DNA of 64,000 nt from Gammaproteobacteria bacterium (GCA_965221695.1 OZ244905.1:1824001-1888000); one strand, 5' to 3'. Positions 16,006-39,885 are shown, numbered from the stretch's first letter. Translations and numbers: made by a program. Notes: generated by a model not told the origin, from the letters alone.

Positions 16006-16023
16006 TGAATGAATAATCATTCA
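16006..16023. promoter_or_regulatory. Palindromic operator upstream of the amine catabolic operon
   Basis: TGAATGA-ATAA-TCATTCA, just upstream of a TGGACA-17-CATGAT sigma70-like promoter. Confidence 0.7.
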
Positions 16024-16087
16024 TTTCTTGTGGACAGTATAACCCGGATATGGCATGATACGAATCGCATAACTCATCTCGGCCGAC

Positions 16088-17419
16088 ATGTCACGCAAAC
16101 ACGATAAATCAGCAGCACATTTTCAGAAGGCGTTGACTCGCCTGCCGCTGGGCGTGACTTCCAATTTTCGCTACTGGGGGGATGACAGAACGATTTACAT
16201 CAAACAGGGGAAAGGCGCCCGGATTTGGGATATCGACGGCAACGAATACATCGACTACCGCATGGGTTACGGCCCCGCTATCCTCGGGTACGCTGATGAA
16301 AGGGTCGACGAAGCCGCCCGTCACGGCATGGAGACAGGCGGCGTGTTCGCGCTGGCGACGGAGCTTGAATACCAGGTTGCTGAACGTCTTTGTAAGATGG
16401 CGCCGTCTGCCGAACAGGCGAGATTTTCCGTATCCGGAACGGAAGCGGTGATGGCTGCCTTGAGGCTGGCCCGAGCCTGTGCCGGTAAGGATGAGTACGT
16501 GCTGGTTGAAGGGGGTTATCACGGTATATTCAGCGAGGCGTTATGGTACTCTGAGGTCGAGAACTGGCAGGAAAAAGAAGGAGACCCGGCGCTGCTGCCC
16601 TATGGTGATGGCGTGCCAGACCTTTACCGCCACTTGGTTCACAGTGTTCCCTTGAACGATTCCGATCGCCTTGAAAGCCTGTTCCGACACCGCGCTGATA
16701 AAATCGCCGCATTCCTGATTGAACCTATCATGGGTAATTGCTGTTCCATCACCGCCAGCAACCAATACCTCAAGGATACGCGCGAACTGTGCAGCCGTTA
16801 TGACGTGATACTGATCATCGACGAGGTAAAAACCGGGTTCCGGGTCGCTAAAGGAGGCGCACAGGAACTGCTGGGGGTGGATGCGGACCTTTGCGCGTTT
16901 GCAAAAGCCATGGCCAACGGTTACCCGATTTCCGCGTTGGCCGGCAAGGAAGAATATATGCGCGCTATCGGAGACGGGGTGACCCATGGCGGCACTTACT
17001 GTGGCCACTCGGTCTCCCTGGCTGCCGCTGAAAGAACTCTGCAGATTCTCGATGAGACGGACGCGCTGGGATCCATCGCCGCCCGGGGCGAACAACTGCT
17101 GCAAGGCCTCGGCGAGGTATTGACCCGGCGCGGCATCCCTCATTGTTTTGTTGGTCATCCCTCCATGCCAGGATTATTCTTTAGTTCGGAACCGCCAAAT
17201 GACTACCGCGACTGGGCGCGTTCCGATTACACTTTCTACAAGGCGCTGGCGCCTAACCTGCATGACGCCGGCGTGCTGGTGGAACCTGATTCGCGCGAGC
17301 CGTGGTTCCTTTGCGAAGCCCACGATGAAGCCTGCATAGAAGAAACCGTGACAAAGTTTGAACAAGCGGTACACGTGACGCTCGAACAGCAACAGGGTAA
17401 GCGCTACGGAGCCGTCTAA
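16088..17419 (+). CDS. Class III PLP aminotransferase (GSA-aminomutase-like)
   Basis: WDIDGNEYID, SGTEA, GGYHG, EPIMGN, DEVKTGFR, FAKAMANG. Confidence 0.9.
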   Translation: MSRKHDKSAAHFQKALTRLPLGVTSNFRYWGDDRTIYIKQGKGARIWDIDGNEYIDYRMGYGPAILGYADERVDEAARHGMETGGVFALATELEYQVAERLCKMAPSAEQARFSVSGTEAVMAALRLARACAGKDEYVLVEGGYHGIFSEALWYSEVENWQEKEGDPALLPYGDGVPDLYRHLVHSVPLNDSDRLESLFRHRADKIAAFLIEPIMGNCCSITASNQYLKDTRELCSRYDVILIIDEVKTGFRVAKGGAQELLGVDADLCAFAKAMANGYPISALAGKEEYMRAIGDGVTHGGTYCGHSVSLAAAERTLQILDETDALGSIAARGEQLLQGLGEVLTRRGIPHCFVGHPSMPGLFFSSEPPNDYRDWARSDYTFYKALAPNLHDAGVLVEPDSREPWFLCEAHDEACIEETVTKFEQAVHVTLEQQQGKRYGAV

Positions 17420-17507
17420 GCTGTATTCTCCATATATCATGTTTCCGATAACGCCAAACGACCTGGTGAGAAACACGGGTTAATACAGCCAACGGAGAAC
17501 AGAAGTC

Positions 17508-19124
17508 GTGAAGCATTATGACGCAATCGTCATCGGCGCCGGTCACAATGGCCTGACCAATGCCGCATTCCTGGCCAAGGCCGGTTTGTCTGTGCTGGTC
17601 GTGGAAAAAAATCCCTGGATAGGCGGCGCGTCTGTCAGCCGCTCCTTGTACCCGGGCTGGACTTATTCCAACTGTTCCTATGTATGCAGCCTGTTCCGCC
17701 CGGAGATCTACCGCGACCTGGAGTTGGCGCGCCACGGCCTGCAGGTCATTCCTTATGAAGGCGGCATCACCTTTATGCGCAACGGGGATTATTTTGGTAG
17801 TTATGGCGACGAGGAGCGCCAGTATCGGGAAATGGCGAGGCATTCAAGACGCGATGCCGACGCGTATTTTCGCTATGAGGCGGATGTGATGCGTCAGACC
17901 CAACTGATACGTCCGCTGTTAATGCGGACACCGCCGGACCCGACATCGTTCAGACCCCGGGACATCATGGAATTGATCCATTTCATAAAATCCTACTGGG
18001 ACCTGGGCGAGGAAGCCCTGTGCGATACCGTCCGCTTTTGGACCATGAGCATCGGCGACTTTCTGGACGAATATTTTGAAACAGACGTGATCAAAGCACA
18101 CCTGGCCGGCAGCGGCATTATCGGCACCGCGCTGGGGGTTTATTCTCCGGGCTCGGCCTACGTGTTGCTGCATCATTATATGGGCGATGTGGACGGCAGT
18201 ATCGGCTCCTGGGGTTTTGCACGAGGCGGCATGGGCGCCATCGCCAATGCTCTGGCCGGCGCTTTCCAGGCCCATGGCGGCGAGATTAAAGTCGATGCAG
18301 GCGTTGACAAAATCCTTGTGGACGGACGACGCGTCAAAGGCGTGGCGCTGGAAAACGGCGACGAATTCCACGCCGATATCGTCGTTTCCAATCTCGATCC
18401 GAAACGCACCTTCCTGGACATCATGAATGCAAGAGACCTGCCGCCGGAGCTGGTGAGCAAAGCGCGCAACTTCAAGATTCGCGGCTCTTCCGGGAAGCTC
18501 AATATCGCCCTGGACGGCATGCCCTCGTTTCATGCCATCTCCGGCGACCATGAGTTGTTCAAAGCGGATTTTCATTTTATCGACTCGCTGGAACGCATGG
18601 AACTGGCCTACGATGACTGGAAAAACGGTACCTGGTCAAAAGATCCTTACCTCGATACCCTGATACCCACCCGCGTCGACCCGACCATGGCCCCGCCCGG
18701 CAAACACATGATGAGCGTATTTGTCCAATATTGCCCGCCGCAAGTGAACGGCGAGGACTGGACCGATGAGCAACGGGATCAGTTCGGGCAAACCGTGATT
18801 GACCAGATTTCGGAATACAGTCCTGATTTCAAGGATTTGATCCTGCATGCTGAAATCCGCACACCGCGGGAGTTGGAACAGGAAGTGGGGCTGACCGAAG
18901 GCAACATCTTCCAGGGTGAACTGACCTTCGACCAACTGCTGTTTAACAGGCCCTTCCCTGGCTATGCTCGCTATCGAGGGCCTCTGCAAGGCATGTACCT
19001 GTGTGGTTCCGGCACGCACCCGGGCGGCGGCGTAATGGGCGCGCCGGGCGCTAATGCCGCCAGGGAAATCCTGCGCGACCTGCGCCGCGCCAATGTCGTC
19101 CCGGAAACGTTTTGTGATGACTGA
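17508..19124 (+). CDS. FAD oxidoreductase, phytoene desaturase/PYROXD2-like (copy A)
   Basis: IGAGHNGL, RGGMG, GNIFQGEL, YLCGSGTHPGGGVMGAPG. Confidence 0.9.
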   Translation: MKHYDAIVIGAGHNGLTNAAFLAKAGLSVLVVEKNPWIGGASVSRSLYPGWTYSNCSYVCSLFRPEIYRDLELARHGLQVIPYEGGITFMRNGDYFGSYGDEERQYREMARHSRRDADAYFRYEADVMRQTQLIRPLLMRTPPDPTSFRPRDIMELIHFIKSYWDLGEEALCDTVRFWTMSIGDFLDEYFETDVIKAHLAGSGIIGTALGVYSPGSAYVLLHHYMGDVDGSIGSWGFARGGMGAIANALAGAFQAHGGEIKVDAGVDKILVDGRRVKGVALENGDEFHADIVVSNLDPKRTFLDIMNARDLPPELVSKARNFKIRGSSGKLNIALDGMPSFHAISGDHELFKADFHFIDSLERMELAYDDWKNGTWSKDPYLDTLIPTRVDPTMAPPGKHMMSVFVQYCPPQVNGEDWTDEQRDQFGQTVIDQISEYSPDFKDLILHAEIRTPRELEQEVGLTEGNIFQGELTFDQLLFNRPFPGYARYRGPLQGMYLCGSGTHPGGGVMGAPGANAAREILRDLRRANVVPETFCDD

Positions 19125-20676
19125 CCGTTACGATGCAATCGTCATAGGCGCCGGCCATAATGGCCTGGTTTGCGCCGCGTACCTGGCCCGCGCCGGTTAT
19201 TCAGTACTGGCGCTGGAAGCGAACGAGCAAGTCGGCGGCTGCGCCATCACCCGGGAGTTCGCTCCCGGCTATTCGGTCTCCGCCGGCGCGCACCTGTTGT
19301 GCGGATTGCCCGCGCGTATCGTCCACGACCTGGCGCCGGAACGGCGCGGCCTTCAATGGGCGGCCGCCGGCATGGATACGGTCGCGCTGGCGCCGGATGG
19401 CAATCACCTTACCTTGGGCCAGGATAGTGTGAACGGCCTTGAACTGCCCGGAGACGACCGCGCCGCATACCCCCTGTTCCTGCGCAAATACCGGCGCTTT
19501 GCCCGCTTGTTGCAAAAGACATTCCTGCGCCGACCTCCCCGGCTCGCCCATAATAGCCCGACGGAGCTGGCGCGCCTGGCCGGTCTGGCCCTGGAAGTGC
19601 GCCTGCTGGGCAAAGACCTGATGCGTGAATTGCTGCGCACCGGGGCAATCAATATCTACGATGTATTGCAGGAAACCTTCGCCGATAAGCGCTTGAAAGG
19701 CGCGCTCTCCCTGGATGCCCTGCTCGGCGCCAACCTGGGGCCGCGCTCGCCTGGTTCAGTCCTGACCTTCCTGTACCGATTGGCGGGACAGTGGGACCAT
19801 AGCGGCGTCTCGCTGCCCGCGGGAGGAATGAGCGCGCTGGCCCGCGCGCTGCGCAATGCCGCCGAGACCGCTGGGGTCGAGATCAGAACCGCGACACCGG
19901 TCAAGCGGGTGTTACTGGAACATGACCGGGCAGCCGGCGTAGAAACCGCATCAGGCGAACAGATAGCGGGGAGACTGATCGTATCCAATGCCGATCCGAA
20001 AACCACCTTCCTGCAACTGGTCGGAGCCAGGCACATGGAGACGGGTTTTGTCAGGCGCATTAATAATATTCGTATGCAGGGCAAGGCGGCCAAATTACAT
20101 CTCGCCCTGGACGGATTGCCGGAATTCCGGGGACTGACCGCGGCGCAAACGGGTCAAAGACTGCTGGTTGCGCCCTCGATGGATTATCTCGAGCAGGCAT
20201 TCGACGCCTCCAAGTACGGCAGGTTTTCTGAACAGCCAGCGCTGGAAATCAGTATCCCGACCAGCCACGACCAGAGCCTGGCGCCGTCCGGCAAGCATGT
20301 ATTGTCCGCCATCGTCCAGTACGTTCCCTTCCGGCTTCGTTCCGGTTGGGAAACCGGCAAAGACGCCCTTAAGCAATTGCTGATAAAACGCTTGGAGCAA
20401 TATGCGCCCGGCATCGGCAAGCAGGTAATTGCCGCAGAGTTGCTGGGGCCGCCGGACCTGGAAACAGAATTCAACATGCATGGCGGCCACTGGCATCACG
20501 GCGAATTAAGCATGGATCAATTTCTGATGCTACGGCCAGTCCCGAGCGCGGCGCGCTACCGCGCGCCGCTCACCGGACTGTACCTGTGCGGCGCCGGCTG
20601 CCACCCCGGCGGCGGTATAACCGGCTTGCCGGGATACAACGCCGCCAGGGAAATACTGAAACAGGAGAGGGCTTAA
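19117..20676 (+). CDS. FAD oxidoreductase, phytoene desaturase/PYROXD2-like (copy B)
   Basis: IGAGHNGL, GHWHHGEL, YLCGAGCHPGGGITGLPG; start overlaps the copy A stop. Confidence 0.9.
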   Translation: MTDRYDAIVIGAGHNGLVCAAYLARAGYSVLALEANEQVGGCAITREFAPGYSVSAGAHLLCGLPARIVHDLAPERRGLQWAAAGMDTVALAPDGNHLTLGQDSVNGLELPGDDRAAYPLFLRKYRRFARLLQKTFLRRPPRLAHNSPTELARLAGLALEVRLLGKDLMRELLRTGAINIYDVLQETFADKRLKGALSLDALLGANLGPRSPGSVLTFLYRLAGQWDHSGVSLPAGGMSALARALRNAAETAGVEIRTATPVKRVLLEHDRAAGVETASGEQIAGRLIVSNADPKTTFLQLVGARHMETGFVRRINNIRMQGKAAKLHLALDGLPEFRGLTAAQTGQRLLVAPSMDYLEQAFDASKYGRFSEQPALEISIPTSHDQSLAPSGKHVLSAIVQYVPFRLRSGWETGKDALKQLLIKRLEQYAPGIGKQVIAAELLGPPDLETEFNMHGGHWHHGELSMDQFLMLRPVPSAARYRAPLTGLYLCGAGCHPGGGITGLPGYNAAREILKQERA

Positions 20677-21860
20677 TGGTAGCTCGGGTCGCAGCGCAAC
20701 GGGTTTTACCCACGCCGTTTCATCGGCGCGCCGCAGCCGCGTGCGAGACCAATCTCTGGTCATCCTGGGCGGGATATACCGTCGTGGACTGCTATACCTC
20801 CGTGGAAGATGAATATTTCTCCATCCGTAACGCAAGCTCGGTGTTTGACCTCAGCCCCATGACCAAGTATCGCATCAGCGGTAAGGATGGGCTGGCCTAC
20901 CTGGACAAGCTGATGACGCGCAGGATGGACAAGCTGACCCCCGGGCAGGTCATGTACACACTCTGGTGCAATGATCAAGGGCGCCTGCTGGATGACGGAA
21001 CCGTCTTCCACCTGGGCGACAATCAATGGCGCTTGTGTTCCCAGGAACCACACCTGGACTGGCTGCTGGCAAGCGCCTTGGGTTTTGCTGTCGAGATTCG
21101 CGACGAATCGGAGGAACTGGCTGCCCTGGCTGTGCAAGGCCCCACTTCCTGCCGGACACTGAAAGCCATGGGCCTGGCAGATATCGAGCTACTCAAACCC
21201 TTTTCAGCGCGCGTTTTTCCATTTGAAAATAACGAACTGCTGATCTCGCGCACCGGTTTTACCGGCGACCTGGGTTATGAGTTATGGATGCAACCGGATG
21301 CTGCGGAATCCGTATGGGATGCCCTGTTCACGGCCGGCGCGCCGTTCGGCATCACGCCCATCGGCGGCCAGGCCCTGGATATTGCCCGCCTTGAGGCCGG
21401 TTTCATCCAGCCGGAAGCGGAGTTCATGCCTGCGGCCAACCTGGTGCGCCCGAACCGGGGCCGTTCCCCGTTCGAACTGGGTCTTGGCCACCTGGTGCAT
21501 CTCGACAAGCCGGTTTTCAACGGCAGACGGGCTTTGCTGGAAGAACAGCAACAAGGGTCGCGCTATCGCCTGGTCAGGCTGGATGTCGCCGGCAACAAGC
21601 CGGCCAGCGAAGCGTTTATTTACAATCACAAGGAGCAGGAGGTCGGGCACGTGACCTCGGCGGCCTGGTCACCCAGCGCCAAGATGAATATCGCCCTGGC
21701 CTCGTTGCAGATGCCCTGGGGCAGACCCGAGGATGAACTGTATGCGGAAGTATATTACGATAGCGAATTACAGTGGAACCGCCTCATGGCCCGCTGCAAA
21801 GTGGTGGAACACGCTTTTTTTGACCCGCCGCGACGGCGCAAGACCCCGGCGGATTGCTGA
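20676..21860 (+). CDS. GcvT/aminomethyltransferase family folate-binding protein
   Basis: TPFH, FDLSPM, DDGTV, LAVQGP, SRTGFTGDLGYE, ARLEAG; TAATG coupling. Confidence 0.9.
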   Translation: MVARVAAQRVLPTPFHRRAAAACETNLWSSWAGYTVVDCYTSVEDEYFSIRNASSVFDLSPMTKYRISGKDGLAYLDKLMTRRMDKLTPGQVMYTLWCNDQGRLLDDGTVFHLGDNQWRLCSQEPHLDWLLASALGFAVEIRDESEELAALAVQGPTSCRTLKAMGLADIELLKPFSARVFPFENNELLISRTGFTGDLGYELWMQPDAAESVWDALFTAGAPFGITPIGGQALDIARLEAGFIQPEAEFMPAANLVRPNRGRSPFELGLGHLVHLDKPVFNGRRALLEEQQQGSRYRLVRLDVAGNKPASEAFIYNHKEQEVGHVTSAAWSPSAKMNIALASLQMPWGRPEDELYAEVYYDSELQWNRLMARCKVVEHAFFDPPRRRKTPADC

Positions 21861-21914: not shown

Positions 21915-23309
21915 GTGAACAACTGCAAACAGACAACTCCGGAGGAACTGCAGGAATTTCTGGAAAGACACCCTGACACGAAGATGGTCGAACTCCTGCT
22001 GCCCGATATCAACGGTATCCTGCGGGGCAAACGTGTCGGCAGAGACGAACTCAATGCCTTGTACCGGCAGGGACTTAAAATGTGCGCCTCGACCCCGCTC
22101 ATCGACAGTCGCGGCGAAATTACCTTTGATATAAACCTGGGCACCCGGGACGGAGACCCGGATATCATGAGTTATCCGGTGGCCGGCACGCTGGCCCCGG
22201 TTCCCTGGTTGGGCGATTCAGCCATTGCTCAGGCATTTGTTACCTTGCGCGACCTGGATGGCGCGCCCTGGTTTGCTGACCCCCGTCAGGTATTGCGGCG
22301 CGTGTGCGACAAGCTGCAAGAACTGGGTTTGCGGGCGGTGGTCGCAACGGAATTCGAGTTTTACCTGCTGGAAACTGGGGAGGGCAATGCGCCACAGCCG
22401 CGTCTGGGCAGGATTCCCGGCACCGGACTGAAGCAACAAGGCCTGCAATATGCCAGCCTGGAGGATTTGTGGGAATGCGACCCGCTGCTCCGGGATGTGC
22501 AGCGCAACTGCGAAGCGCAAAACGTGCCCGCAAGCGCCGCGTTGCCTGAATTTTCTCCGGGGCAGTTTGAAATCAACCTTCACCACCAGGACGACCCGGC
22601 GCGCGCCTGCGACCACGGCGCAATGCTGAAACGCATCATCAAGGGAACCGCCTGCCGGCATGGACTGGGCGCGGCCTTCATGGCAAAACCCTTTGACAAC
22701 TACGCCGGCAGCGGGCTGCATATTCATGTCAGCCTGTTCGATGAGCAGGGAAACAATGTCTTCGCCGGCCCTGAAGACGAAACCAGGCCGTCCGTTTCCA
22801 GCGCGCTCAGGCATGCGGTAGGGGGGCTGCAACAGACCATGGCCGATGCCATGGCTTTGTTCGCTCCCAACGCCAATTCTTACCGGCGCCTGCAACCTGA
22901 CTCGTTTGTCCCGCTAAGTCCGAACTGGGGTTATAACCATCGGGCGGTTGCTTTGAGAGTGCCGGTGTGCGGCCGCCAGGATACCCGCATAGAACATCGG
23001 GTGGCAGGCGCGGATGCCAACCCGTACCTGGTAATGGCTGCGGTCCTGGCCGGCATTCATTACGGCATCACCCGTCAATGTGAACCAACTGAAATGATCG
23101 CTGAAGGGACTATGCTGGATAAACAGGAGATCGCCTTGCCGCGCCGTTGGGACGCAGCCCTGGACCGATTCCAGCACAGTGATGTGTTGCCGGAGTACCT
23201 GGGAGAGAAGTTTTGCCAGGTATTCGAGCTGGTCCGGCGCAGTGAGTGCGAACGCTTTCACAGCCAGGTCAGCAACCGTGATTACGAGTGGTATCTGCGC
23301 GGTGTTTAA
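21915..23309 (+). CDS. Glutamine synthetase-like gamma-glutamyl-amine ligase (PuuA/PauA family)
   Basis: DINGILRGKR, EFEFYL, PGQFEINL, FMAKP..GSGLHIH, RIEHRVAGADANPY. Confidence 0.88.
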   Translation: MNNCKQTTPEELQEFLERHPDTKMVELLLPDINGILRGKRVGRDELNALYRQGLKMCASTPLIDSRGEITFDINLGTRDGDPDIMSYPVAGTLAPVPWLGDSAIAQAFVTLRDLDGAPWFADPRQVLRRVCDKLQELGLRAVVATEFEFYLLETGEGNAPQPRLGRIPGTGLKQQGLQYASLEDLWECDPLLRDVQRNCEAQNVPASAALPEFSPGQFEINLHHQDDPARACDHGAMLKRIIKGTACRHGLGAAFMAKPFDNYAGSGLHIHVSLFDEQGNNVFAGPEDETRPSVSSALRHAVGGLQQTMADAMALFAPNANSYRRLQPDSFVPLSPNWGYNHRAVALRVPVCGRQDTRIEHRVAGADANPYLVMAAVLAGIHYGITRQCEPTEMIAEGTMLDKQEIALPRRWDAALDRFQHSDVLPEYLGEKFCQVFELVRRSECERFHSQVSNRDYEWYLRGV

Positions 23310-23442: not shown

Positions 23443-24633
23443 ATGTCTTCACTATCACAACTCATTGACAACCAGCCGGAAGGGTTTTCCCTGCAACAGG
23501 CATTTTACCGGGATGCCGATATATACCGGCGCGAACTGGAGCGGCTGTTTATGAAGTCCTGGTTGTATGCCGGGCATGTCAGCCAGATTCCAGAAACCGG
23601 CGATTATTTTCTGTATGAACTGGCCGATGAATCCGTGATCATCGTACGCGCAGGCGAGAATTCCATTAAGGCATTCCTGAACCTGTGCCGCCATCGCGGT
23701 TCCCGTATCTGCCTGGAAGCGGAAGGCCGGCAGAAACTGCTGGTATGTCCATACCATGGCTGGACTTACCAGCTTGACGGCGCGCTGCGGGGCGCCAACT
23801 ACACACCGCCGGATTTCCAACGTTCGAATTATGCTCTGCGCGAGGCGCGGCTGGAGACGCTGCACGGGATGATCTTCATCAATTTTGACGAACAGACAGC
23901 CTCTTTCCAGCCGCTACGGCGCGATTTGGACGACTGCCTGCAGCCCTACAGGCTGGAACAGACCAAGGTGGCTCACAAGCAGAGTTACCCTATCCAGGCA
24001 AACTGGAAACTGGCGCTGGAAAATTATTGCGAGTGCTATCACTGCGTTCCCGCTCACCCCGAGTATGCTGAAGGACATGGCCGCTCATTTCCTGAGAAGG
24101 AGATGTCCGGCCTGCTGAAGCAGGTCATGGAACGAGGTAAACGGCTGGGACTGACCGATCATTGCGTTGACAAGAGCTGGTTGCATTCCGGCGTCGCCAA
24201 CGCAGACCGCGGCTTTGATCGCTATCCCCTGCTGAACGGCTTTGTCACCGGCAGCCGGGACGGCAAACCCGTGGCGCCGCTGCTGGGAGACCTGCGCGGT
24301 TATGACGGCGGCGCAACTGATATTCAGATCGGGCCGTTCACCTTTGCCCTGGCCTACTGCGACCACTTGGTCATCTATCATTTTCGCCCTTTGAATGTAG
24401 CCGACTGTGTTTGTGACATCACCTGGCTGGTCAATGAAAACGCGGTAGAGGGAAAAGATTACCATCAAGAGGAGCTGATCTGGCTCTGGGACATCACTAC
24501 CGTTGCCGACAAACGCATTATCGAGGACAATCAGAAAGGCATAAATTCCGCGTTTTACCAGCCAGGACCTTATACCGGCATGGAAGGTTTCACCCGCGGG
24601 TTCATCGACTGGTATCTGCGCGCGATGAAATAA
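23443..24633 (+). CDS. Rieske non-heme iron oxygenase alpha subunit (GbcA/Stc2/CntA-like)
   Basis: CRHRG..CPYHGW Rieske motif; ENYCECYHCVPAHP iron site. Confidence 0.9.
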   Translation: MSSLSQLIDNQPEGFSLQQAFYRDADIYRRELERLFMKSWLYAGHVSQIPETGDYFLYELADESVIIVRAGENSIKAFLNLCRHRGSRICLEAEGRQKLLVCPYHGWTYQLDGALRGANYTPPDFQRSNYALREARLETLHGMIFINFDEQTASFQPLRRDLDDCLQPYRLEQTKVAHKQSYPIQANWKLALENYCECYHCVPAHPEYAEGHGRSFPEKEMSGLLKQVMERGKRLGLTDHCVDKSWLHSGVANADRGFDRYPLLNGFVTGSRDGKPVAPLLGDLRGYDGGATDIQIGPFTFALAYCDHLVIYHFRPLNVADCVCDITWLVNENAVEGKDYHQEELIWLWDITTVADKRIIEDNQKGINSAFYQPGPYTGMEGFTRGFIDWYLRAMK

Positions 24634-24635: not shown

Positions 24636-25289
24636 ATGCGCAAGAGAGATCCGGGGAGCATCCCCGACAACAGGACCCTGGCAAAACAACGCCGCCAGGA
24701 ACAACTCATCAAGGCCACTATACGCTGTGTTGCCAAACGCGGCCTTTCCGCTACGACTATGGCGGACATCACCCAAGAGGCGGGGCTTAGCCTGGGGATC
24801 GTCAACCTGCACTTCAAGAGCAAGGACAAGCTGTTACTGGAAACCCTGAAATATCTGGCGGAAGAATATCGCCAGGCATGGGAAAAAACGTTACGCACGA
24901 CAGGGCCGGGGCCGGCGGAGAAACTTGCCGCCCTGGTAGAACTGGATTTTAGCAAAGCGATCTGTGATCACAAAAAAATCTCGGTGTGGTTCGCCTTCTG
25001 GGGCGAGGCCCGCGCGCGCCCCGTCTATATGAAAACCTGCGCCGAATATGACCACTATTACGTGCAGGAGGAAGCGCAACTGTTTGCTGAAATACTGCGT
25101 GACGATGACAACAACCGCCTTGATCCGATGATGCTGGCTACGACACTGGATGCGCTTGTGGACGGTCTGTGGGTGGATATGCTGTCAGCGCGGAATGCAA
25201 TCAGCCGTAACCAGGCCAAGCAACTGGTGATGGACTATCTGTGCTCAGTCCTGCCGGATCATTTTCACCGCACCGCCGAGCCGGACTGA
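24636..25289 (+). CDS. TetR family regulator (BetI-like)
   Basis: RRQEQLIKATI..TTMADI..AGLSLGIVNLHFKSK; WFAFWGE; DGLW. Confidence 0.9.
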   Translation: MRKRDPGSIPDNRTLAKQRRQEQLIKATIRCVAKRGLSATTMADITQEAGLSLGIVNLHFKSKDKLLLETLKYLAEEYRQAWEKTLRTTGPGPAEKLAALVELDFSKAICDHKKISVWFAFWGEARARPVYMKTCAEYDHYYVQEEAQLFAEILRDDDNNRLDPMMLATTLDALVDGLWVDMLSARNAISRNQAKQLVMDYLCSVLPDHFHRTAEPD

Positions 25290-25375
25290 CCAACGATGGG
25301 GCAATCTCCGGATAACAGCGCCAGGGAGTGGGAGACGGGCCGGATGCGACGCAAACGAACGCGGCGGGTTTCACT

Positions 25376-32380: not shown

Positions 32381-32410
32381 AAAAAATGAATGAAGATTTA
32401 TTCATTTTTT
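32381..32410. promoter_or_regulatory. Palindromic operator upstream of the TonB receptor operon
   Basis: AAAAAA-TGAATGA-AGAT-TTATTCA-TTTTTT, same core as 16006-16023; abuts TTGACA. Confidence 0.7.
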
Positions 32411-32485: not shown

Positions 32486-34927
32486 ATGTCAAGTAACAAA
32501 ACAACTGTTCAACGGCCGCCATTCCAAAAAAAGACCCTCGCCATTGCCATGTCGGCCCTGCTGGGCGGCGCTCAGGCTGCCAATGCTCAAATACTGGAAG
32601 AAATCGTCGTTACCGCAACTAAGCGGGAGGCCAATCTGCAGGATATACCCGTATCGATTACTGCGTTTACGACGGATGAAATTCATCGTCGCGGTTTCAA
32701 GGGCATGGACGATTATGTCAGCTTCATTCCGGGCCTGGCCGTTGGCCGGCGCGAACCCGGCGGCAACTCGGTGGTATTCCGCGGGGTCGCGGCATCTGGC
32801 ATCCAGTTCGGCAACAATCCTTCTAGCGGTGTTTACCTGGATGAACAACCGATTACCGCCGCCGGCATCAACCCGGATCCGCGCCTGGTTGATATAGAAC
32901 GGGTCGAAGCATTAAGCGGTCCGCAAGGCACCTTGTTCGGCGATGCCTCCCAATCCGGGACGCTGCGCATTATTACCAACAAACCGGATGCTAACGAATT
33001 TGACAGTTGGGTCGAGGCCTCCGGTTCACAGGTTGATGGCGGCGATGCCGGCTATGATGTGAGCGCAATGGTCAACCTCCCTGTGATCGAAAACCAGTTG
33101 GCTGTTCGCCTGGTCGGTTTTCGCGCGGAAGAAGCCGGCTACATCGATAATGTGCTTGGCCCCAGCGCCGGCGGCTCTTTTGACAATGCCGGCTTTGTCG
33201 AGGAGGACGTCAATACCAGCAGGACCACCGGCGGACGGATCGCCGCGCGCTGGACCCCCAATGAGGACTGGACTCTGGATGTGTCCGCGATATACCAGGA
33301 CTGGGAGGCCGATGGTTTTGCCGACGCCAATCTCGAGGCGGGCAACTTGGAACAGGTTCGCTTCAACAAAGAGACAATGGACGAGGATTGGTACCAGTTG
33401 GGCCTGACCCTGGAGGGCAAGCTGGGTTTTGCCGATACCTTATTGCATGCCTCTTATTTCAATCGTGATTTTCGCTACGATGCCGATGGCACTGATTATC
33501 AGTTTGCCTTCAACCAACTGTTTGATGATGCGTATTACGATGTCTATAATTTTGGCGGCGACCCAAAAGACGGTTTTGCCATCAACGATGTGGGCAATGA
33601 GCGCTGGACCGTGGAGGCGCGATTGTCGACACCGGCTGACTCCGACAGCAAATGGTTCGGATTAGTGGGCATGTTTTACAACCGCACTGAGGAACATTCG
33701 GTATTTGCCGCGGGTAATGGTGATTTCGGCGGTTCCCCGGGATTTTATTACATCGCCTATAACGTAGATTTCAATAATCCGACTTATATCGATTACGACG
33801 GCACTATCCCAAATCCGGACTATAGGCCGGACAGCGCTTCCCTGAATGGGTTGCCTCCCGGTAGCTGGGAAGCCAATGACAACTGGTTTTTCGGGGTCTA
33901 TGACGAGCAGATCGACCAGTTTGCCATTTTCGGCGAGATGAGCTTCGATTTCACCGAGAATTTTACCATTACCGCTGGCGGACGCTGGTTTCGGGTTGAA
34001 CGCGAGTTCCACCTGGTGCAAGGCGCGCTGCAACAAGGGGATGCGCTGAAGCCCGATTATGAGACCGACTTCATTGTTACCGATGAAACCGTAGACGGGA
34101 TCGATCATGGTTTTGTGCCCAAGCTCAACCTGAGTTGGCGCTACACCGACGACATGATGGTTTACTTTACCTATTCACAAGGCTTCCGCAGTGGCGGCGG
34201 CAACGGCTCCAAGCGCATTTCAGGCATTCCTTCCACGTATGACGCGGACAAGCTGAAAAACATGGAAGTGGGGGCAAAATCCACCTGGCTGGATGGCCGT
34301 TTGCGCGCCAACTTCACCGCCTATAAAATGGAATGGGAAGATATACAAGTGCAGGTGGAAGACCCGAACCCGCTGGTGTTTTCCTTGGGTATCGTGAACT
34401 TCCCGGAGGCAAAGATAGACGGCTTCGAGTTTGACTTTGCCTGGTTGCCGGCCGAAGGCTGGGACCTGGGCGGAACGGTTGCCTATAACGATGCCAGGAT
34501 TTCCGAAACAGCGGCCCTGGATTTTCTGGGCTACACGCTGGATGTGGAAAAAGGCAGCAGGCTCCCGATTACGCCGGACTGGAAGGCGAGTCTGTCTGTG
34601 CAATATACCTTCCCGCAACTGATTGCCGGCGCCGAACCCTATATGCGCTTCGATTATTCGCATACCGGCGAATCGATTAATGCCTTGAGGGGTGTTGAAT
34701 CCATCGTCGCGCTGGAGACCGACCCGCCGACCACGGTGCAGAAGGCTTATGATGTCGGTGATTTCAGTATGGGACTGGAGGCCGATACCTGGAGCGCGTC
34801 ATTTTATGTTAATAATGTCTGGGACGAGAGCGGCACTACGTTTGTGAATAACCGCTGGGCTGAACGACGTTTTGGCGTGAACCAGCCCCGCACCTTTGGT
34901 GTGACCTTCAGAAAATATTTCAGGTAA
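32486..34927 (+). CDS. TonB-dependent receptor
   Basis: Signal peptide, LEEIVVTA TonB box, ERVEALSGPQGTLFG plug, terminal PRTFGVTFRKYFR. Confidence 0.93.
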   Translation: MSSNKTTVQRPPFQKKTLAIAMSALLGGAQAANAQILEEIVVTATKREANLQDIPVSITAFTTDEIHRRGFKGMDDYVSFIPGLAVGRREPGGNSVVFRGVAASGIQFGNNPSSGVYLDEQPITAAGINPDPRLVDIERVEALSGPQGTLFGDASQSGTLRIITNKPDANEFDSWVEASGSQVDGGDAGYDVSAMVNLPVIENQLAVRLVGFRAEEAGYIDNVLGPSAGGSFDNAGFVEEDVNTSRTTGGRIAARWTPNEDWTLDVSAIYQDWEADGFADANLEAGNLEQVRFNKETMDEDWYQLGLTLEGKLGFADTLLHASYFNRDFRYDADGTDYQFAFNQLFDDAYYDVYNFGGDPKDGFAINDVGNERWTVEARLSTPADSDSKWFGLVGMFYNRTEEHSVFAAGNGDFGGSPGFYYIAYNVDFNNPTYIDYDGTIPNPDYRPDSASLNGLPPGSWEANDNWFFGVYDEQIDQFAIFGEMSFDFTENFTITAGGRWFRVEREFHLVQGALQQGDALKPDYETDFIVTDETVDGIDHGFVPKLNLSWRYTDDMMVYFTYSQGFRSGGGNGSKRISGIPSTYDADKLKNMEVGAKSTWLDGRLRANFTAYKMEWEDIQVQVEDPNPLVFSLGIVNFPEAKIDGFEFDFAWLPAEGWDLGGTVAYNDARISETAALDFLGYTLDVEKGSRLPITPDWKASLSVQYTFPQLIAGAEPYMRFDYSHTGESINALRGVESIVALETDPPTTVQKAYDVGDFSMGLEADTWSASFYVNNVWDESGTTFVNNRWAERRFGVNQPRTFGVTFRKYFR

Positions 34928-34983: not shown

Positions 34984-36312
34984 ATGCTCGAAGACTGGTT
35001 TAACGAAAACGCCATCGAAGAGGTAGAGGTGCTGATCCCTGATTTTGCCGGTATGGCCAGGGGCAAATACGTGCCTGTGGAACGCTACCTGCAAGATCAG
35101 GGAATACGCCTTGCCCAAGGTCTTTTTACTCAGACTATTTCCGGCGAATATACGGAATTGGTCGAAACCATTAACCCCACGGATATGGATATGGAGGCCC
35201 GACCGGCGTTGGAAACACTGCGCATAGTGCCCTGGGCAAATTACCCGACCGCCCAGATTATCCACGACTGTTATCAGCATGACGGCGCGCCGGTGACACT
35301 GGCTCCCAGGCATGTCTTGCAACGGACGCTGGCTATGTATGAGAGCCAGGGCAGAGCCGCTGTGGTCGCGCCGGAGATAGAGTTTTACCTGGTCAAGGCC
35401 AATACCGACCCCCATTTTCCATTAGAGCCGCCAACCGGCCGTTCAGGGCGTCAGGAACAATCCCGCCGTGTTCTGAGCATCGATGCCTTGAACGAATTCG
35501 ACGATGTCATCGAAGATATCTATACCTACGCTGAACTGCAGCAATTGGATATAGAAACCGTGTCTTATGAAGACGGCATCGCTCAACTGGAAGTCAATTT
35601 TCGTCATGGCGAGCCGATGCGTCTGGCCGACCAAGTGTTCGCGTTCAAACGCACTGTGCGCGAAGCGGCATATAAACACGATATGCACGCAACCTTCATG
35701 GCCAAACCCCACCAGGATCAGCCCGGCAGTTCGATGCACCTGCACCAGAGCATCATCGATAAGAAAACCGGTGAAAATATCTTTATGGGTAAGCCTGGTG
35801 AACCGAATAAATTGTTCAAAGGCTATATCGCCGGTTTACAGAAATACATGCCCGCGATCATGCCCATGTTTGCGCCCAACGTGAATTCTTATCGGCGCAT
35901 CGCCCGCTACCTGTCCGCGCCCATCAATACCCATTGGGGCTTCGACAATCGCACGGCAGGCCTGCGCGTGCCCTCATCGGCGCCTGAAGACACCCGGATT
36001 GAAAACCGGGTGCCCGGCGCTGACACCAACCCTTACCTGGTTATCGCCGCGTCTTTGGCAGCAGGCTACCTGGGCATGGAAAAACAGCTCGAACCGAGCC
36101 GGCCAATCGACGACAGCGCGCAGGAGCGGGCAATTACTCTGCCGCGTGACTTGCTGTCCGCGTTGAAGTTCCTGCGCAGGAGCGGGCCGATACGCCAGAT
36201 TCTCGGTGAAGAATTTGTCCAAGCCTATTTTGCCGTGAAGGAATTGGAATACGAAACATTTCTGGGGGTGATCAGTTCCTGGGAACGGGAGCGCCTGTTG
36301 TTGACGGTATAA
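34984..36312 (+). CDS. Second GS-like gamma-glutamylpolyamine synthetase (SpuB/PauA family)
   Basis: PDFAGMARGK, APEIEFYL, ATFMAKP..PGSSMHLH, WGFDNRT, ENRVPGADTNPY, ISSWERERL. Confidence 0.88.
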   Translation: MLEDWFNENAIEEVEVLIPDFAGMARGKYVPVERYLQDQGIRLAQGLFTQTISGEYTELVETINPTDMDMEARPALETLRIVPWANYPTAQIIHDCYQHDGAPVTLAPRHVLQRTLAMYESQGRAAVVAPEIEFYLVKANTDPHFPLEPPTGRSGRQEQSRRVLSIDALNEFDDVIEDIYTYAELQQLDIETVSYEDGIAQLEVNFRHGEPMRLADQVFAFKRTVREAAYKHDMHATFMAKPHQDQPGSSMHLHQSIIDKKTGENIFMGKPGEPNKLFKGYIAGLQKYMPAIMPMFAPNVNSYRRIARYLSAPINTHWGFDNRTAGLRVPSSAPEDTRIENRVPGADTNPYLVIAASLAAGYLGMEKQLEPSRPIDDSAQERAITLPRDLLSALKFLRRSGPIRQILGEEFVQAYFAVKELEYETFLGVISSWERERLLLTV

Positions 36313-36361: not shown

Positions 36362-36635
36362 ATGAACCAGCCGGCAAACAATACCGCAAACTGGCGGGCC
36401 ATTGACCGGGCGCACCAACTGCACCCCTTTTCCGATACCAAAGCCCTGGCAGAGGAAGGCTGCCGCGTGATCACGCGCGCGCAGGATATCTATAATCTGG
36501 GACAACGGTCTGGTCATGCGAGCCATACGTGATACTATGGTTATCTCTCCACCGCTGACTATGACGAGAGAACAAATCGACGAGCTGATTGAACTTGTCT
36601 ACAAATGCCTGAAGCTGACTGCTGGTAAACTGTAA
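36362..36635 (+). pseudogene. SpuC-like omega-aminotransferase remnant with a large internal deletion
   Basis: N-terminus WRAIDRAHQLHPFSD..RVITRAQDIY(+1)IWD fused directly to C-terminus NGLVMRAIRDTMVISPPLTMTREQIDEL. Confidence 0.85.
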
Positions 36636-36650
36636 ACCGGAGGAAACAAC

Positions 36651-38474
36651 ATGGGCTGGCAACATCAACTATTACGAGTCAATCTGAGCAACCTGAGTTG
36701 CGCAGTAGAATCGTTGAACAAAGAATGGGCGCAATCCTACCTGGGACAGCGGGGACTGGGCACCAAGTATCTGTATGAAGAGATCGACCCGCGGGTTGAC
36801 CCGGTTTCTCCCGAGAACAAGCTGATCTTTGCAACCGGCCCTTTGACCGGCACCATGGCCTCCACCGGGGGACGTTATTCGGTCATCACCAAGGGCGCGT
36901 TGACAAATGCCATTGCCTGTTCCAATTCCGGCGGCCAATTCGGCGCCGAGCTGAAACTGGCCGGTTACGACCTGCTGATCCTGGAAGGCAAGGCGCCGAA
37001 ACCCGTTTACCTTCATATCGAAAACGAGCGCGCGCGGTTGTTGCCTGCCGATCGCCTCTGGGGAAAGACTGTCTGGGAGACGGAAGAAATCATCAAGCAA
37101 ACGCATCAGGATCCTCTGATCCATATTGCCTCAGTCGGGCCCAGCGCCGAATACGGTTGCCGTTTTGCCTGCGTGGTTAATGACATGCACCGGGCCGCCG
37201 GCCGCTCCGGCGTCGGCACAGTGATGGGTTCGAAGGGCCTGAAGGCCATTGCCGTGCGGGGGACAAAAGGCGTCAGCGTGGCGGACCCTGCAGCATTTAT
37301 GCAGATCGCGACGGACACGGCGCAGGCCATGCGGCAAGATAGCGGGCGCAAAGCTCTAACCGGGGATGGCACCATCGCGATGATGGATACTACCAATGTC
37401 TATGGCTCCTTGCCCACCCGGAACTTCCGAGATGTCCAGTTTGAGGGCGCCGACAAAATCGGCCTGAGCGCAATGAAGACCGCCAATGAAAACGGCCATG
37501 TCAACCTTGTGACCAACAGCGCCTGCTTTGGCTGCACTATCGGTTGTGGCAGGGTCTGCCACATCGACCCGACACATTTTTCCGTCAAGGACAAGCCGCA
37601 ATATCACGGCGCGTCCGGCGGGCTTGAATACGAAACTGCGTATGCGCTGGGTTCTGCGGTAGGCGTAGACGATATCGACGCTGCCACGTATTGTGGTTTC
37701 CTCTGCAACGAATACGGTATGGATCCCATCTCCCTGGGCGGGTCTATCTCTGCCGCGATGGAGTTATTCGATATCGGCGCTATTGATGAATCGGTCACCG
37801 GCGGCATCAAGCTGGAATTCGGTTCCGCGGAAGCATTGTGCGCGATGACTGAAGCCGTTGCCAAAGGAGAAGGGTTCGGACGGGATGTGGGCATGGGCTC
37901 AAAGCTACTGTGCGAGAAGTATGGTCGCCCCGAGCTTTCCATGTCCGTCAAGGGCCAGGAATTCGCCGCCTATGACGGGCGCGGCATGCAAGGGATGGGC
38001 CTGGGATATGCCACCAGCAACCGGGGCGCCTGCCATTTACGCGCCAGCCCTTACGAACATGATTTTACCACCCTGGAAACCGAGGGCAAGGCGCAGGTAG
38101 TCAAGGAGACCCAGGATTTTATCGCTGCAGTCGATTCCAGCGGTTTATGCCTGTTCTCAGGCTTCGGCGGCTTCTCCAACGAACTGGTTGCGAAACACGT
38201 CGATGCCGCCTGTGCCGGAGAATGGGATGAAACGCGCCTGCAGGAGACCGGGGAGCGCATCTGGAACCTGGAACGGCAGTTCAACCTTGCCGCCGGTTTG
38301 ACCGGCAAAGACGATACCTTGCCTCCCAGGATTCTGTCCGAACCGGCGCCAAGCGGCGTGGGTAAAGGGCAGGTATGCAAGCTGGATGAGATGCTTCCGC
38401 AATATTACCAGTTGCGCGGCTGGGACGAGGGCGGCGCGCCGGTACCGGAAACCCTGGAACGGCTTGGACTGTAG
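36651..38474 (+). CDS. Aldehyde:ferredoxin oxidoreductase (tungsten AOR family)
   Basis: GPLTGT, SNSGG, RAAGRSGVG..MGSKGLKA, CFGCTIGC, EYET, RGACH, DSSGLC, YYQLRGWD. Confidence 0.92.
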   Translation: MGWQHQLLRVNLSNLSCAVESLNKEWAQSYLGQRGLGTKYLYEEIDPRVDPVSPENKLIFATGPLTGTMASTGGRYSVITKGALTNAIACSNSGGQFGAELKLAGYDLLILEGKAPKPVYLHIENERARLLPADRLWGKTVWETEEIIKQTHQDPLIHIASVGPSAEYGCRFACVVNDMHRAAGRSGVGTVMGSKGLKAIAVRGTKGVSVADPAAFMQIATDTAQAMRQDSGRKALTGDGTIAMMDTTNVYGSLPTRNFRDVQFEGADKIGLSAMKTANENGHVNLVTNSACFGCTIGCGRVCHIDPTHFSVKDKPQYHGASGGLEYETAYALGSAVGVDDIDAATYCGFLCNEYGMDPISLGGSISAAMELFDIGAIDESVTGGIKLEFGSAEALCAMTEAVAKGEGFGRDVGMGSKLLCEKYGRPELSMSVKGQEFAAYDGRGMQGMGLGYATSNRGACHLRASPYEHDFTTLETEGKAQVVKETQDFIAAVDSSGLCLFSGFGGFSNELVAKHVDAACAGEWDETRLQETGERIWNLERQFNLAAGLTGKDDTLPPRILSEPAPSGVGKGQVCKLDEMLPQYYQLRGWDEGGAPVPETLERLGL

Positions 38475-38598
38475 CGCTGGATCAATGCCGGCAGCGCCGC
38501 CGTTGCCATCCCTGCTACGCGGCAACGGCAAAGTTCAGCGTAGATTATCCTCTACTCCAGAGCTGCGGGCAGCTTGAACAGCTTAAGGACCGTATCTG

Positions 38599-39885
38599 AT
38601 GCCGGAGCAATACCAGCAAGCCCATTGTAATTCCTATTACGCGGCAACGGCGAACGTTACTACTGACTACCCTGCGCTCCAGGGCGCGGAGAGTTGCGAT
38701 GTCTGTGTCATCGGTGCCGGGTTCACCGGCATTTCCGCGGCGCTGAGCCTGGCAGAGCGAGGCTATAAGGTCAGCGTTATTGAGGCAAACCGAGTAGGCT
38801 GGGGAGCGTCCGGACGTAACGGCGGCCAGCTTATCGGCGGCATTAGCGGGGAGGAACACCTGGAAAAATCTCAGAATCAGAACATCTCCGATCAGCTCTG
38901 GTCCATGCGCTGGGCTGGCCATGAGATCATCAAGCAGCGAGTCGAGAAGTATTCCATAGAATGCGATCTCAAGTTCGGACATATGGATGTCGCCATCAAA
39001 CCCCGCCACTGGCGCGACCTGCTGGAGGAATACGACACCTTGCAAGAACGGGGATTTCCGCATGAAACCAGGCTGGCGCCGAAGCAGGAAATTACGAGTG
39101 TGATAGGCACGGAGGCCTATATCGGTGGCCTGATCAACATGGCCAACGGCCATCTGCATCCCCTAAACCTGTGCCTGGGCGAGGCTGCAGCGGCCGCGCA
39201 ACAGGGAACCAACATATACGAACAGTCTCCCGTACTCCGGATTGAACACGGTAGCAAACCGCGTGTGCATACTGAAGCAGGCAGCATCACTTGCGACTTC
39301 GTAATCCTGGCAGGTAATGCCTACCACCGCTTAGAACCCCGGCGCCTGGGCGGCTATGTGTTCCCCGCCGGCAGCTTTATCATTGCCACCGAACCCCTGT
39401 CAGATGAAATGGTAAGCGAAATCAACCCCCTGGACCTGGCCGTGTGCGATCCCAATCATGTGCTCGACTACTTCAGACTGAGCGCGGACAAGCGTCTGTT
39501 ATTCGGTGGCCGCTGCAATTATTCCGGTCGCGACCCGCGCAGTATCAGCCGATCCATTTTTCCGAGGATGGCAAAGATCTTTCCGCAACTGAAAAACGCG
39601 CGCATCGATTACGAATGGGGCGGCAAAATCGGCATTGTCATCAACCGCGTCCCGCATATCGGCAGACTGCAAGACAATGTCTTCTACGCCCAGGGCTATT
39701 CCGGCCACGGCGTAAACGTCACCCACCTGGCCGGTCAGATCCTGGCCGAAGCCATCGCCGGCACGTATGAGCGCTTCGACATATTCGCAAAGACCAAACA
39801 TCTGCGCATCCCCGGCGGTCAATGGATAGGCAACCAACTGCTTGCCCTGGGTATGCTCTACTATCGGTTGCTGGATTTGCTTTGA
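38599..39885 (+). CDS. puuB: FAD-dependent gamma-glutamylputrescine oxidase-like protein
   Basis: SYYAATA, IGAGFTG, GWGASGRNGG, HLHPLN, LDYFRLSAD, QGYSGHG. Confidence 0.8.
   Translation: MPEQYQQAHCNSYYAATANVTTDYPALQGAESCDVCVIGAGFTGISAALSLAERGYKVSVIEANRVGWGASGRNGGQLIGGISGEEHLEKSQNQNISDQLWSMRWAGHEIIKQRVEKYSIECDLKFGHMDVAIKPRHWRDLLEEYDTLQERGFPHETRLAPKQEITSVIGTEAYIGGLINMANGHLHPLNLCLGEAAAAAQQGTNIYEQSPVLRIEHGSKPRVHTEAGSITCDFVILAGNAYHRLEPRRLGGYVFPAGSFIIATEPLSDEMVSEINPLDLAVCDPNHVLDYFRLSADKRLLFGGRCNYSGRDPRSISRSIFPRMAKIFPQLKNARIDYEWGGKIGIVINRVPHIGRLQDNVFYAQGYSGHGVNVTHLAGQILAEAIAGTYERFDIFAKTKHLRIPGGQWIGNQLLALGMLYYRLLDLL

Follow-up and report, generated by a model that had tools for sequence, protein, structure and literature searches.

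Methylated amines and polyamines form a large pool of dissolved organic nitrogen, and the known routes for them cover few small compounds. Here we describe a gene island of about 24 kb in a stretch of 64,000 nucleotides (hereafter the window) from a gammaproteobacterial chromosome (GCA_965221695.1, OZ244905.1:1824001-1888000). The window is G000:C1:1824001-1888000 in our numbering, and the genome G000 is a single contig of 3.54 Mb. Among the closest described systems are the betaine and stachydrine routes (GbcAB-DgcAB-SoxBDAG and Stc2/StcD), in which a Group V Rieske oxygenase takes the first methyl group off a quaternary nitrogen, flavoproteins take off the later methyl groups, the one-carbon unit passes to folate, and the repressor is of the BetI type. 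The island has candidate counterparts of each. However, it contains no GbcB- or CntB-type reductase; two CrtI-family flavoproteins and a free GcvT protein stand in place of DgcAB, Sox and StcD; its importer is of the Pot type and not of the betaine type; and an aminotransferase and glutamine synthetase (GS)-like ligases are additional. Its Rieske protein reaches 320.3 bits with the GbcA equivalog NF058607, whose cut-off is 670, and is a member of the family rather than GbcA itself.

In dimethylglycine dehydrogenase/oxidase, heterotetrameric sarcosine oxidase and the trimethylamine N-oxide (TMAO) demethylase Tdm, a folate domain of the GcvT fold is tied to oxidative demethylation, as may by analogy be the case in the island. 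In those enzymes a DAO-family flavoprotein or DUF1989 is joined to the folate domain by fusion or serves as its partner, whereas the folate protein of the island is a separate polypeptide, and its candidate catalytic partners are separate polypeptides of the CrtI/PF01593 type. The Puu pathway of E. coli and the Pau/Spu pathways of Pseudomonas resemble the island in their GS-like ligases, DAO-family oxidase, class III aminotransferases and PotF-type binding protein with an ABC importer. Unlike them, the island has an AOR-family protein instead of the PuuC/KauB aldehyde dehydrogenase, lacks PuuD, PuuR and PuuP, and adds demethylation enzymes, a TonB receptor and a sulfotransferase. All its equivalog scores for these pathways lie below the cut-offs, as do those of its importer with the PotFGHI equivalogs (Table 1). 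CntAB, also of Group V, shares the Rieske and mononuclear-iron motifs and the CxxC pair, but only the N-terminal 200 residues of the island Rieske protein align with CntA (132 bits), and the island has no CntB partner. CntA splits a C-N bond to give trimethylamine and does not demethylate. The homarine operon was also considered and, from the available part of its description (PMC13236597), is unrelated.

We suggest that the island is a repressor-controlled regulon of two operons that serves to import and degrade a polyamine-like amine that is N-methylated and probably quaternary, a reading that we favor with moderate confidence. Gene content, the palindrome at both promoters, and the conservation of gene sets and palindrome across lineages were read directly from the sequence, and the steps of the mechanism are proposed on that basis. 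A full-text literature search, whose coverage leaves out most subscription journals, found no published description of the gene set or of the flavoprotein-GcvT trio. New here are the putative operator that ties the genes for the TonB receptor, sulfotransferase, second GS-like ligase, AOR and DAO-family flavoprotein to the core, the Group V hallmark of the Rieske protein, the nature of an aminotransferase remnant, and the modular distribution of the genes.

Two operons and a shared palindrome

Between 16088 and 39885 the + strand carries 17 intact co-oriented genes and one aminotransferase remnant. A sequence-only reading of the window had counted the same genes, and the count was upheld by the open reading frame (ORF) listing, by Pfam and NCBIfam scans and by comparing the ends of the remnant (AT2) with the intact AT2 genes of G022 and G015. 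The first operon runs AT3 (a class III aminotransferase), FADa and FADb (two flavoproteins), GcvT, GS1, Rieske, TetR, PotF-, PotG-, PotH- and PotI-like genes, a 279-residue membrane protein and a TPR-sulfotransferase. The second contains the TonB receptor, GS2, the AT2 remnant, AOR and the DAO-family flavoprotein. Within 16088-32278 the genes are tightly coupled, with overlaps of 8 nucleotides (FADa/FADb), 1 nucleotide (FADb/GcvT) and 4 nucleotides (PotG/PotH) and remaining gaps of 2 to 133 nucleotides. Wider gaps lie at 32279-32485 (207 nucleotides, with a promoter and palindrome inside), at 36313-36650 (the AT2 remnant) and at 38475-38598. Gene lengths agree with those of the orthologues in G022, and the island is located between the atp operon and gluQ.

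A 7-4-7 palindrome, TGAATGA-N4-TCATTCA, emerged from the alignment of the regions upstream of AT3 in eight genomes of the genus, where it sits just upstream of a conserved promoter-like block. One copy precedes each operon (Table 1), and position 16006, which the sequence-only reading gave as the start of the island, is the first base of the exact copy. Palindrome 1 is kept upstream of the aminotransferase gene in G022, G015, G013, G001 (exact) and G003 (one mismatch), and palindrome 2 upstream of the receptor gene in G022 and G015, so that both of these relatives retain both sites. The whole 3.54-Mb genome contains only three sites at one mismatch or fewer; the third (G000:C1:2703375) lies inside a TonB-receptor ORF and was taken as a chance occurrence. 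In other lineages, for which 2.19 Mb of fetched loci were searched, the palindrome occurs in the TetR/AT3 divergent intergenic regions of L006, L010 and L014 and in the FADa/TetR region of G228. In G768 an exact copy lies on contig C16 between TetR and AT3, the latter heading an aminotransferase-flavoprotein-GcvT operon accompanied by TetR and Pot genes, and a second exact copy lies directly upstream of the TonB receptor gene on contig C2, which carries the receptor block. Because the operator-like palindrome is common to both promoters, even where these are on separate contigs, the island is on this evidence two operons (16088-32278 and 32486-39885) of one regulon. The co-regulation proposed earlier is therefore borne out by an operator-like site at both promoters that is conserved in relatives and in other families.

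Since the site and the TetR gene co-locate, the BetI-type TetR, the sole copy of its kind in G000, probably binds the palindrome and controls both operons, and both promoters would be freed when the amine is present. The regulator passes the PF13977 threshold (73.2 bits), scores 117.9 bits against a cut-off of 118 with NF001978, and 118.7 against 201.3 with TIGR03384. The palindrome was also considered as a Fur box. This reading was rejected, as the half-site TGAATGA and the 4-nucleotide spacer are unlike the Fur consensus, and in loci that lack a receptor the sites go with the TetR gene.

Co-occurrence of the genes was examined from three independent anchors: Rieske, FADa and the sulfotransferase. 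Around Rieske genes, flavoprotein and GcvT genes were present in 15 of 80 kept loci, often with AT3, TetR and Pot genes, and the closest Rieske orthologues outside the genus (L004, L005) have as neighbors GS1, a TonB receptor, the sulfotransferase, a PuuD-like amidotransferase, an aldehyde dehydrogenase and an aminotransferase. FADa has an orthologue at more than 80% identity in 9 of 22 other genomes of the genus, and an orthologue in 10 of 400 other Pseudomonadota taken as an even draw. All five genera fetched from that draw have FADa-FADb-GcvT contiguous with TetR and an aminotransferase, three with Pot genes and four with Rieske genes. Orthologues of FADa at 62-66% identity are present on plasmids of cultured Shinella, Ensifer, Rhizobium, Parasedimentitalea and Fuscovulum; the Shinella and Parasedimentitalea plasmids, which were opened, carry the same gene set under generic product names throughout. 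The sulfotransferase was matched in 11 of 399 other Gammaproteobacteria at an E value of 1e-100 or better, only two of them at 58% identity or more (G768, G647). Its orthologues (45-63%) stand beside a TonB receptor and module genes in L004, L005, L010, G228, G647 and G768. In G768 the neighbors are GS2, AT2, the receptor and a conserved 320-residue protein, and G647 has the same four within 38 kb together with FADa, FADb, GcvT, two DAO genes and the gene for the 279-residue protein.

The modules thus co-occur in other genomes, as the sequence-only reading had anticipated. The core (aminotransferase, two flavoproteins, GcvT, Rieske, TetR and Pot importer) recurs in Alpha-, Beta- and Gammaproteobacteria, and in several families it is accompanied by the sulfotransferase/TonB-receptor block and by the GS-like/aminotransferase block. 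The gene set is real, but as a 24-kb unit it is modular and not a fixed block: of seven same-genus relatives fetched, two (G015, G022) carry a complete island at the corresponding place in the chromosome, one has it up to the sulfotransferase, G013 ends at PotI, and G003, G009 and G012 contain a six-gene core. AOR is found in this context within the genus only.

Such modularity would also be expected if the island were a mosaic of separate units, namely a plain putrescine/spermidine route of the Puu type (PotFGHI, GS1, GS2, DAO, AOR), a betaine-type demethylation unit (Rieske, FADa/FADb, GcvT, TetR) and an unrelated TonB-receptor/sulfotransferase pair. The PotF, DAO and GS-like genes are the sole such set in the genome and may also serve ordinary polyamines, and the three fetched paralogues of the sulfotransferase at 38-41% identity all lie beside TonB receptors with no module genes. 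We nevertheless consider a mosaic quite unlikely. The palindrome stands at both promoters, and on two separate contigs in G768; the Pot genes travel with the flavoprotein-GcvT genes in all three proteobacterial classes; and nearly the whole gene set is repeated in G647, which belongs to another family.

Two further observations concern these relatives. In other lineages, a protein of about 320 residues without a family invariably separates the TonB receptor from the TPR-sulfotransferase (L004:5716-6663, L005:4106-5071, L010:6849-7835; also G647 and G768); the L004, L005 and L010 copies are 53-81% identical to one another, and the protein is absent from the genus of the window. In G647, three FADa orthologues (63-68% identity) are spread over two contigs, a sign that the module may be present there in multiple copies that differ in specificity.

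Table 1. Genes and sites of the island and its upstream neighbor, in window coordinates
Feature	Position	Strand	Evidence
Predicted lipoprotein, 366 residues	14739..15839	-	Divergent from first operon; N-terminus ends LLSGC; kept here in G001, G013, G015, G022 (66-71% identity)
Operator-like palindrome 1	16006..16023	.	TGAATGA-ATAA-TCATTCA, exact
Sigma-70-like promoter	16031..16059	+	TGGACA, 17 nucleotides, TG-CATGAT; block conserved in 8 same-genus upstream regions
AT3, class III (HemL/GntE-like) aminotransferase	16088..17419	+	PF00202 205 bits; NF041362 GntE 459 bits (cut-off 525); HemL subfamily 341 bits (cut-off 398)
FADa, CrtI/CrtO-family FAD flavoprotein	17508..19124	+	PF01593, PF01266; CrtO 304.6 bits (cut-off 1000); best PDB match 4dgk, phytoene desaturase
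FADb, FAD flavoprotein paralogous to FADa	19117..20676	+	Start overlaps FADa stop (ATGACTGA); GxGxxG intact
Stand-alone GcvT-family folate-binding protein	20676..21860	+	Start overlaps FADb stop (TAATG); PF01571 188.7 bits, PF08669 36.6 bits
GS1, GS-like ligase, candidate gamma-glutamyl-amine synthetase	21915..23309	+	PF00120 315.8 bits; GGputSyn 227 bits (cut-off 650)
Group V (quaternary-ammonium type) Rieske oxygenase, alpha subunit	23443..24633	+	PF00355 56.5 bits, PF00848; GbcA 320.3 bits
BetI-type TetR	24636..25289	+	PF13977, PF00440
PotF-like periplasmic binding protein	25328..26491	+	NF007962 380 bits (cut-off 636); PDB PotF 1a99 342 bits
PotG-like ABC ATPase	26512..27606	+	TIGR01187 potA subfamily 405.9 bits (cut-off 355.6, passes); PotG 458 bits (cut-off 613)
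PotH-like permease	27603..28499	+	NF007963 394.6 bits (cut-off 489)
PotI-like permease	28582..29412	+	NF007889 342.5 bits (cut-off 476); start set at Met71 of the 346-residue longest ORF, alignment from residue 75
279-residue helical membrane protein, conserved unnamed family	29428..30267	+	149 homologues; AlphaFold2 pLDDT 88.7
TPR + Sulfotransfer_3 protein, without signal peptide	30275..32278	+	PF13469 163 bits; TPR families
Operator-like palindrome 2	32387..32404	.	TGAATGA-AGAT-TTATTCA, 1 mismatch; then TTGCAT-N18-TAATAT; in the 207-nucleotide gap before the TonB receptor gene
TonB-dependent outer-membrane receptor	32486..34927	+	PF07715, PF00593; TIGR01783 (siderophore-receptor subfamily) 120.6 bits (cut-off 223.5)
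GS2, second GS-like ligase	34984..36312	+	PF00120 332.5 bits; GGputSyn 195.6 bits (cut-off 650); 35% identical to GS1
AT2 remnant, class III aminotransferase	36380..36632	+	Internal deletion of ~1.09 kb; two pieces in different frames
AOR-family protein	36651..38474	+	PF02730 256.1 bits, PF01314 415.6 bits; AFOR_N and AFOR_C at full length
DAO-family FAD amine oxidoreductase (PuuB-like by position)	38599..39885	+	PF01266 230.7 bits; best NCBIfam match pipecolate oxidase 191.7 bits (cut-off 600)

Candidate demethylation and amine-handling enzymes

The structures closest to the Rieske protein are those of Stc2 (3vca/4qup) and 3n0q, at about 245 bits. Its [2Fe-2S] ligands C82, H84, C102 and H105 align with those of Stc2 and CntA, and E197-C198-Y199-H200-C201-V-P-A-H205 aligns with the ECYHC...H of Stc2, 3n0q and CntA, so that the CxxC pair and the bridging Glu are present. 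The pattern E-C-x-H-C-x3-H, which the protein shares with Stc2, is given as typical of Group V quaternary-ammonium oxygenases in the available part of PMC10952381. We suggest that the enzyme would hydroxylate an N-methyl group of a quaternary or tertiary nitrogen, with release of formaldehyde, and that the two CrtI-type flavoproteins would oxidize the remaining N-methyl groups. The genes that relatives add, for StcD-like flavin demethylases, MttB and extra Rieske proteins, likewise point to N-methyl chemistry.

FADa is the most conserved member of the FADa/FADb/GcvT trio, with a mean column identity of 73% (alignment A3) compared with 63% for FADb (alignment A1). The two flavoproteins are 35-36% identical to each other, have an intact dinucleotide-binding motif and have CrtO and CrtI as their nearest named relatives. 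Because they are translationally coupled to the GcvT protein, and from the context, we infer that they oxidize amines, as demethylases. The best NCBIfam match of the GcvT protein is the C-terminal folate-binding part of TMAO demethylase (251 bits); true T-proteins are also close, and PDB entry 9q5a matches at 166 bits. By analogy with dimethylglycine dehydrogenase, sarcosine oxidase and TMAO demethylase, it would trap the one-carbon unit on tetrahydrofolate. A complex prediction for FADa and GcvT (alignments A3 and A2) scored 0.26 against a mark of 0.32 and was not used as evidence either way.

Two FADb-GcvT fusions, P0001 (910 residues) and P0003 (851 residues), are singletons in which the final 70-100 residues of FADb are missing; they were attributed to frameshifts or faulty gene calls and were not counted. 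In another singleton, P0002 (733 residues), a GcvT protein of the island type (59% identity) is combined with the CoA-binding N-terminal region of an ADP-forming acyl-CoA ligase. It may be an artefact, and it mirrors the GcvT-then-ligase gene order of L013. Elsewhere in G000 there is a second tandem pair of FADa-like flavoproteins (G000:C1:691359-694508; 36-37% identity) with no GcvT or amine genes nearby, and further single FADa-like paralogues lie at 1374045 and 2540859 of the same contig.

The main rival to our reading keeps the regulon and changes the substrate. The amine would then be not a polyamine but a quaternary omega-amino-acid betaine or a similar small methylated amine (gamma-butyrobetaine, beta-alanine-betaine or a choline-like compound), which would be demethylated to the amino acid, transaminated and then handled as a CoA ester. 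The Group V hallmark and the BetI-type regulator fit such a compound, and relatives offer further support. An acyl-CoA-dehydrogenase-family gene lies next to TetR in L006, L010, L013, G022 and G768; an ADP-forming CoA ligase follows GcvT in L013 and G051, as in the fusion P0002; and MttB, a corrinoid protein and a methylenetetrahydrofolate reductase (MTHFR) adjoin the set in L006. On balance, we regard a betaine-like substrate as unlikely. The PotF-like binding protein retains both acidic clusters of PotF, fitting a di-cation, and the two GS-like ligases with a PuuB-like oxidase fit free amino groups, whereas the genome of the window has no acyl-CoA-dehydrogenase-family gene in the set and the island no CoA ligase. 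In the relatives G022 and G015 the former gene lies between TetR and PotF.

For a polyamine-like amine, which we prefer, the HemL/GntE-like AT3 would convert the freed primary amine to an aldehyde. GntE, in guanitoxin biosynthesis, makes a primary amine that is then N,N-dimethylated; by that comparison, the order proposed here, demethylation and then AT3, would be the reverse. GS1 and GS2 would gamma-glutamylate, and so protect, the second amino group, whose carbon the DAO-family flavoprotein would oxidize. With the PuuA-type model (GGputSyn, NF045547) both ligases score as listed in Table 1, and the models for GS types I and III score alike; the housekeeping GlnA, encoded elsewhere in the genome, is 27% identical to GS1. 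Orthologues of the DAO-family flavoprotein, which is unique in the genome, occur within the G647 cluster (two, at 59% identity) and after the L013 Rieske gene (one, at 47%).

The aldehydes would be oxidized by AOR. We propose this role because in relatives an aldehyde dehydrogenase, NAD dependent, holds the corresponding place beside AT2-type aminotransferases: where the genus of the window has AT2 and AOR, relatives have an aminotransferase and an aldehyde dehydrogenase. Of AT2 itself, the window retains the first 39 residues (36380-36493, 76% identity) and the last 45 residues (36498-36632, 80%), and the gene is intact between the same two neighbors in G022 (L082:7909-9258, PRK07480 770 bits) and G015. 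The genome contains four AOR-family genes, an unusual number for one of 3.54 Mb; the island copy is 60% identical to that at G000:C1:1229901-1231748 and 29% identical to each of the other two. The Pfam scan found neither PF00171 nor PF07722, the families of PuuC- and PuuD-type genes, among the island genes.

Uptake, the sulfotransferase and points against the proposed function

In the proposed pathway the TonB receptor would carry the compound across the outer membrane and the PotFGHI-like system would import it. The PotF-like protein is the only one in G000. At the positions that we take to form the putrescine site of E. coli PotF, it retains W37, D39, Y40, W244, D247, D278 and Y314 and has the changes S38A, S85A, E185D and F276W, of which E185D is common to all 14 module-linked orthologues. 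The Group V hallmark, the nearness of the GcvT protein to the Tdm folate domain and the retained PotF residues are consistent with the N-methylated polyamine or amine suggested by the sequence-only reading. Its further suggestion of a sulfated substrate is unsupported, because a sulfotransferase adds sulfate and there is no sulfatase in the island.

The TPR-sulfotransferase and the 279-residue membrane protein also belong to the regulon. The membrane protein has no Pfam or NCBIfam match, and none of its 149 homologues carries a Pfam domain. The family has invariant FELETY, HT and WDE..WIGGF..IEMN motifs and three conserved Cys residues in a small beta-rich loop. Its AlphaFold2 model, which is confident, gave no Foldseek match at E 0.001, and VIA-align returned only helical-bundle matches of at most Z 9.6, in that tool's uninformative range. 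Its gene adjoins the Rieske gene in L011 and is also within the G647 cluster.

It could also be supposed that the island is biosynthetic, making and re-importing a sulfated, amide-linked polyamine metabolite, for example one of siderophore-like character. The sulfotransferase, the two amide-forming GS-like ligases and the aminotransferase would suit this, as would the receptor, whose best match is the siderophore-receptor subfamily at a score below the cut-off. In the available part of PMC2938197, neighborhoods in which a cytoplasmic sulfotransferase gene adjoins a siderophore-like TonB receptor gene, as here, are predicted to have secondary-metabolite roles. However, those neighborhoods hold dioxygenases, halogenases and SapC and are read as biosynthetic, whereas the island pair has an operator-like site in common with a putative amine-catabolic operon. 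The island contains no exporter, nonribosomal peptide synthetase (NRPS) or NRPS-independent siderophore (NIS) synthetase; its importer, TetR-type control and oxidative demethylases are typical of catabolism; and the palindrome, as noted above, does not resemble a Fur box. A biosynthetic role is thus very improbable.

Within the catabolic reading that we favor, a more specific variant may be considered. The regulon would serve large polycationic N-methylated polyamines, such as the long-chain methylated ones in the biosilica of diatoms or sponges, or comparable natural products of the quaternary polyamine type. The TonB receptor would capture them, the two flavoproteins, as enzymes of the CrtI/PYROXD2 type, would form with the free GcvT protein a three-protein folate-linked N-demethylase, a molybdopterin AOR would take the place of aldehyde dehydrogenase, and the sulfotransferase would have a new amine-handling role. 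Taken with all these particulars, we hold the variant to be distinctly unlikely.

Several observations weigh against the function that we propose. The Pfam scan found no PF00175, and hence no FNR-type reductase for the Rieske protein, among the 17 island genes; four PF00175 matches occur elsewhere in the genome. To our knowledge, the characterized CrtI-family enzymes work on C-C bonds and not on amines, and the demethylase role of FADa and FADb comes from context only. Equivalog cut-offs of NCBIfam are unmet by GS1, GS2, the PotF-, PotH- and PotI-like proteins, the PotG model, BetI, GbcA and GntE. It is hard to assign the sulfotransferase a step in a catabolic route. The AOR gene occurs in this context, besides the window genome, in G015 and G022, all of one genus. 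No PuuD-type hydrolase is encoded in the island; one Peptidase_C26 gene of that type lies at G000:C1:993148. No palindrome within two mismatches was found in the fetched stretches of G009, G012 and G647, and the binding of the palindrome by TetR is itself something that we infer. Finally, the pathway may be partly decayed in the genome of the window, from which AT2 and the acyl-CoA-dehydrogenase-family gene, both retained in relatives, have been lost.

Flanking genes and significance

The gene for the 366-residue predicted lipoprotein and the first operon have a common intergenic region, which contains palindrome 1. Pfam and NCBIfam scans gave no match for this protein, which is at most a possible member of the regulon. 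Farther upstream, 12647-14590 contains an AAA/DUF4143 ATPase gene followed by a 229-residue NAD-epimerase-family piece. The piece, which may be a truncated copy, aligns with its families over their N-terminal part only, and a paralogue 74% identical to it is encoded at another site in G000. A type III restriction-modification pair (Mod, 1033 residues; Res, 1043 residues) occupies 40015-46244, between the DAO gene and gluQ, and has a GC content of 44-49% in surroundings of about 55%. The pair looks like a recent insertion, because it is not at the corresponding place in G015 or G022. Toxin-antitoxin genes lie on both flanks: a PIN-domain protein at 2270-2698, a YoeB/YefM pair at 53382-53973 and a HigB-like/HTH pair at 57407-58008.

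The island lends itself to experiment, since the putative operator has a defined sequence, there is one regulator and one binding protein, and cultured carriers with the genes on plasmids exist, among them Shinella zoogloeoides ATCC 19623, Parasedimentitalea marina W43 and Ensifer adhaerens. These could lead to the substrate and show whether two CrtI-type flavoproteins and a free folate protein constitute a new N-demethylase. The abstracts available on PYROXD2 give no reaction for it, and if the flavoproteins prove to be relatives of this human protein, the result would also suggest a reaction for an orphan enzyme. The links of a TonB receptor, a sulfotransferase and an AOR to amine catabolism are unusual and would widen the known roles of these families. 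If the variant for long-chain methylated polyamines were true, the island would encode the first TonB-dependent uptake route for polyamines and an undescribed folate-linked N-demethylase.

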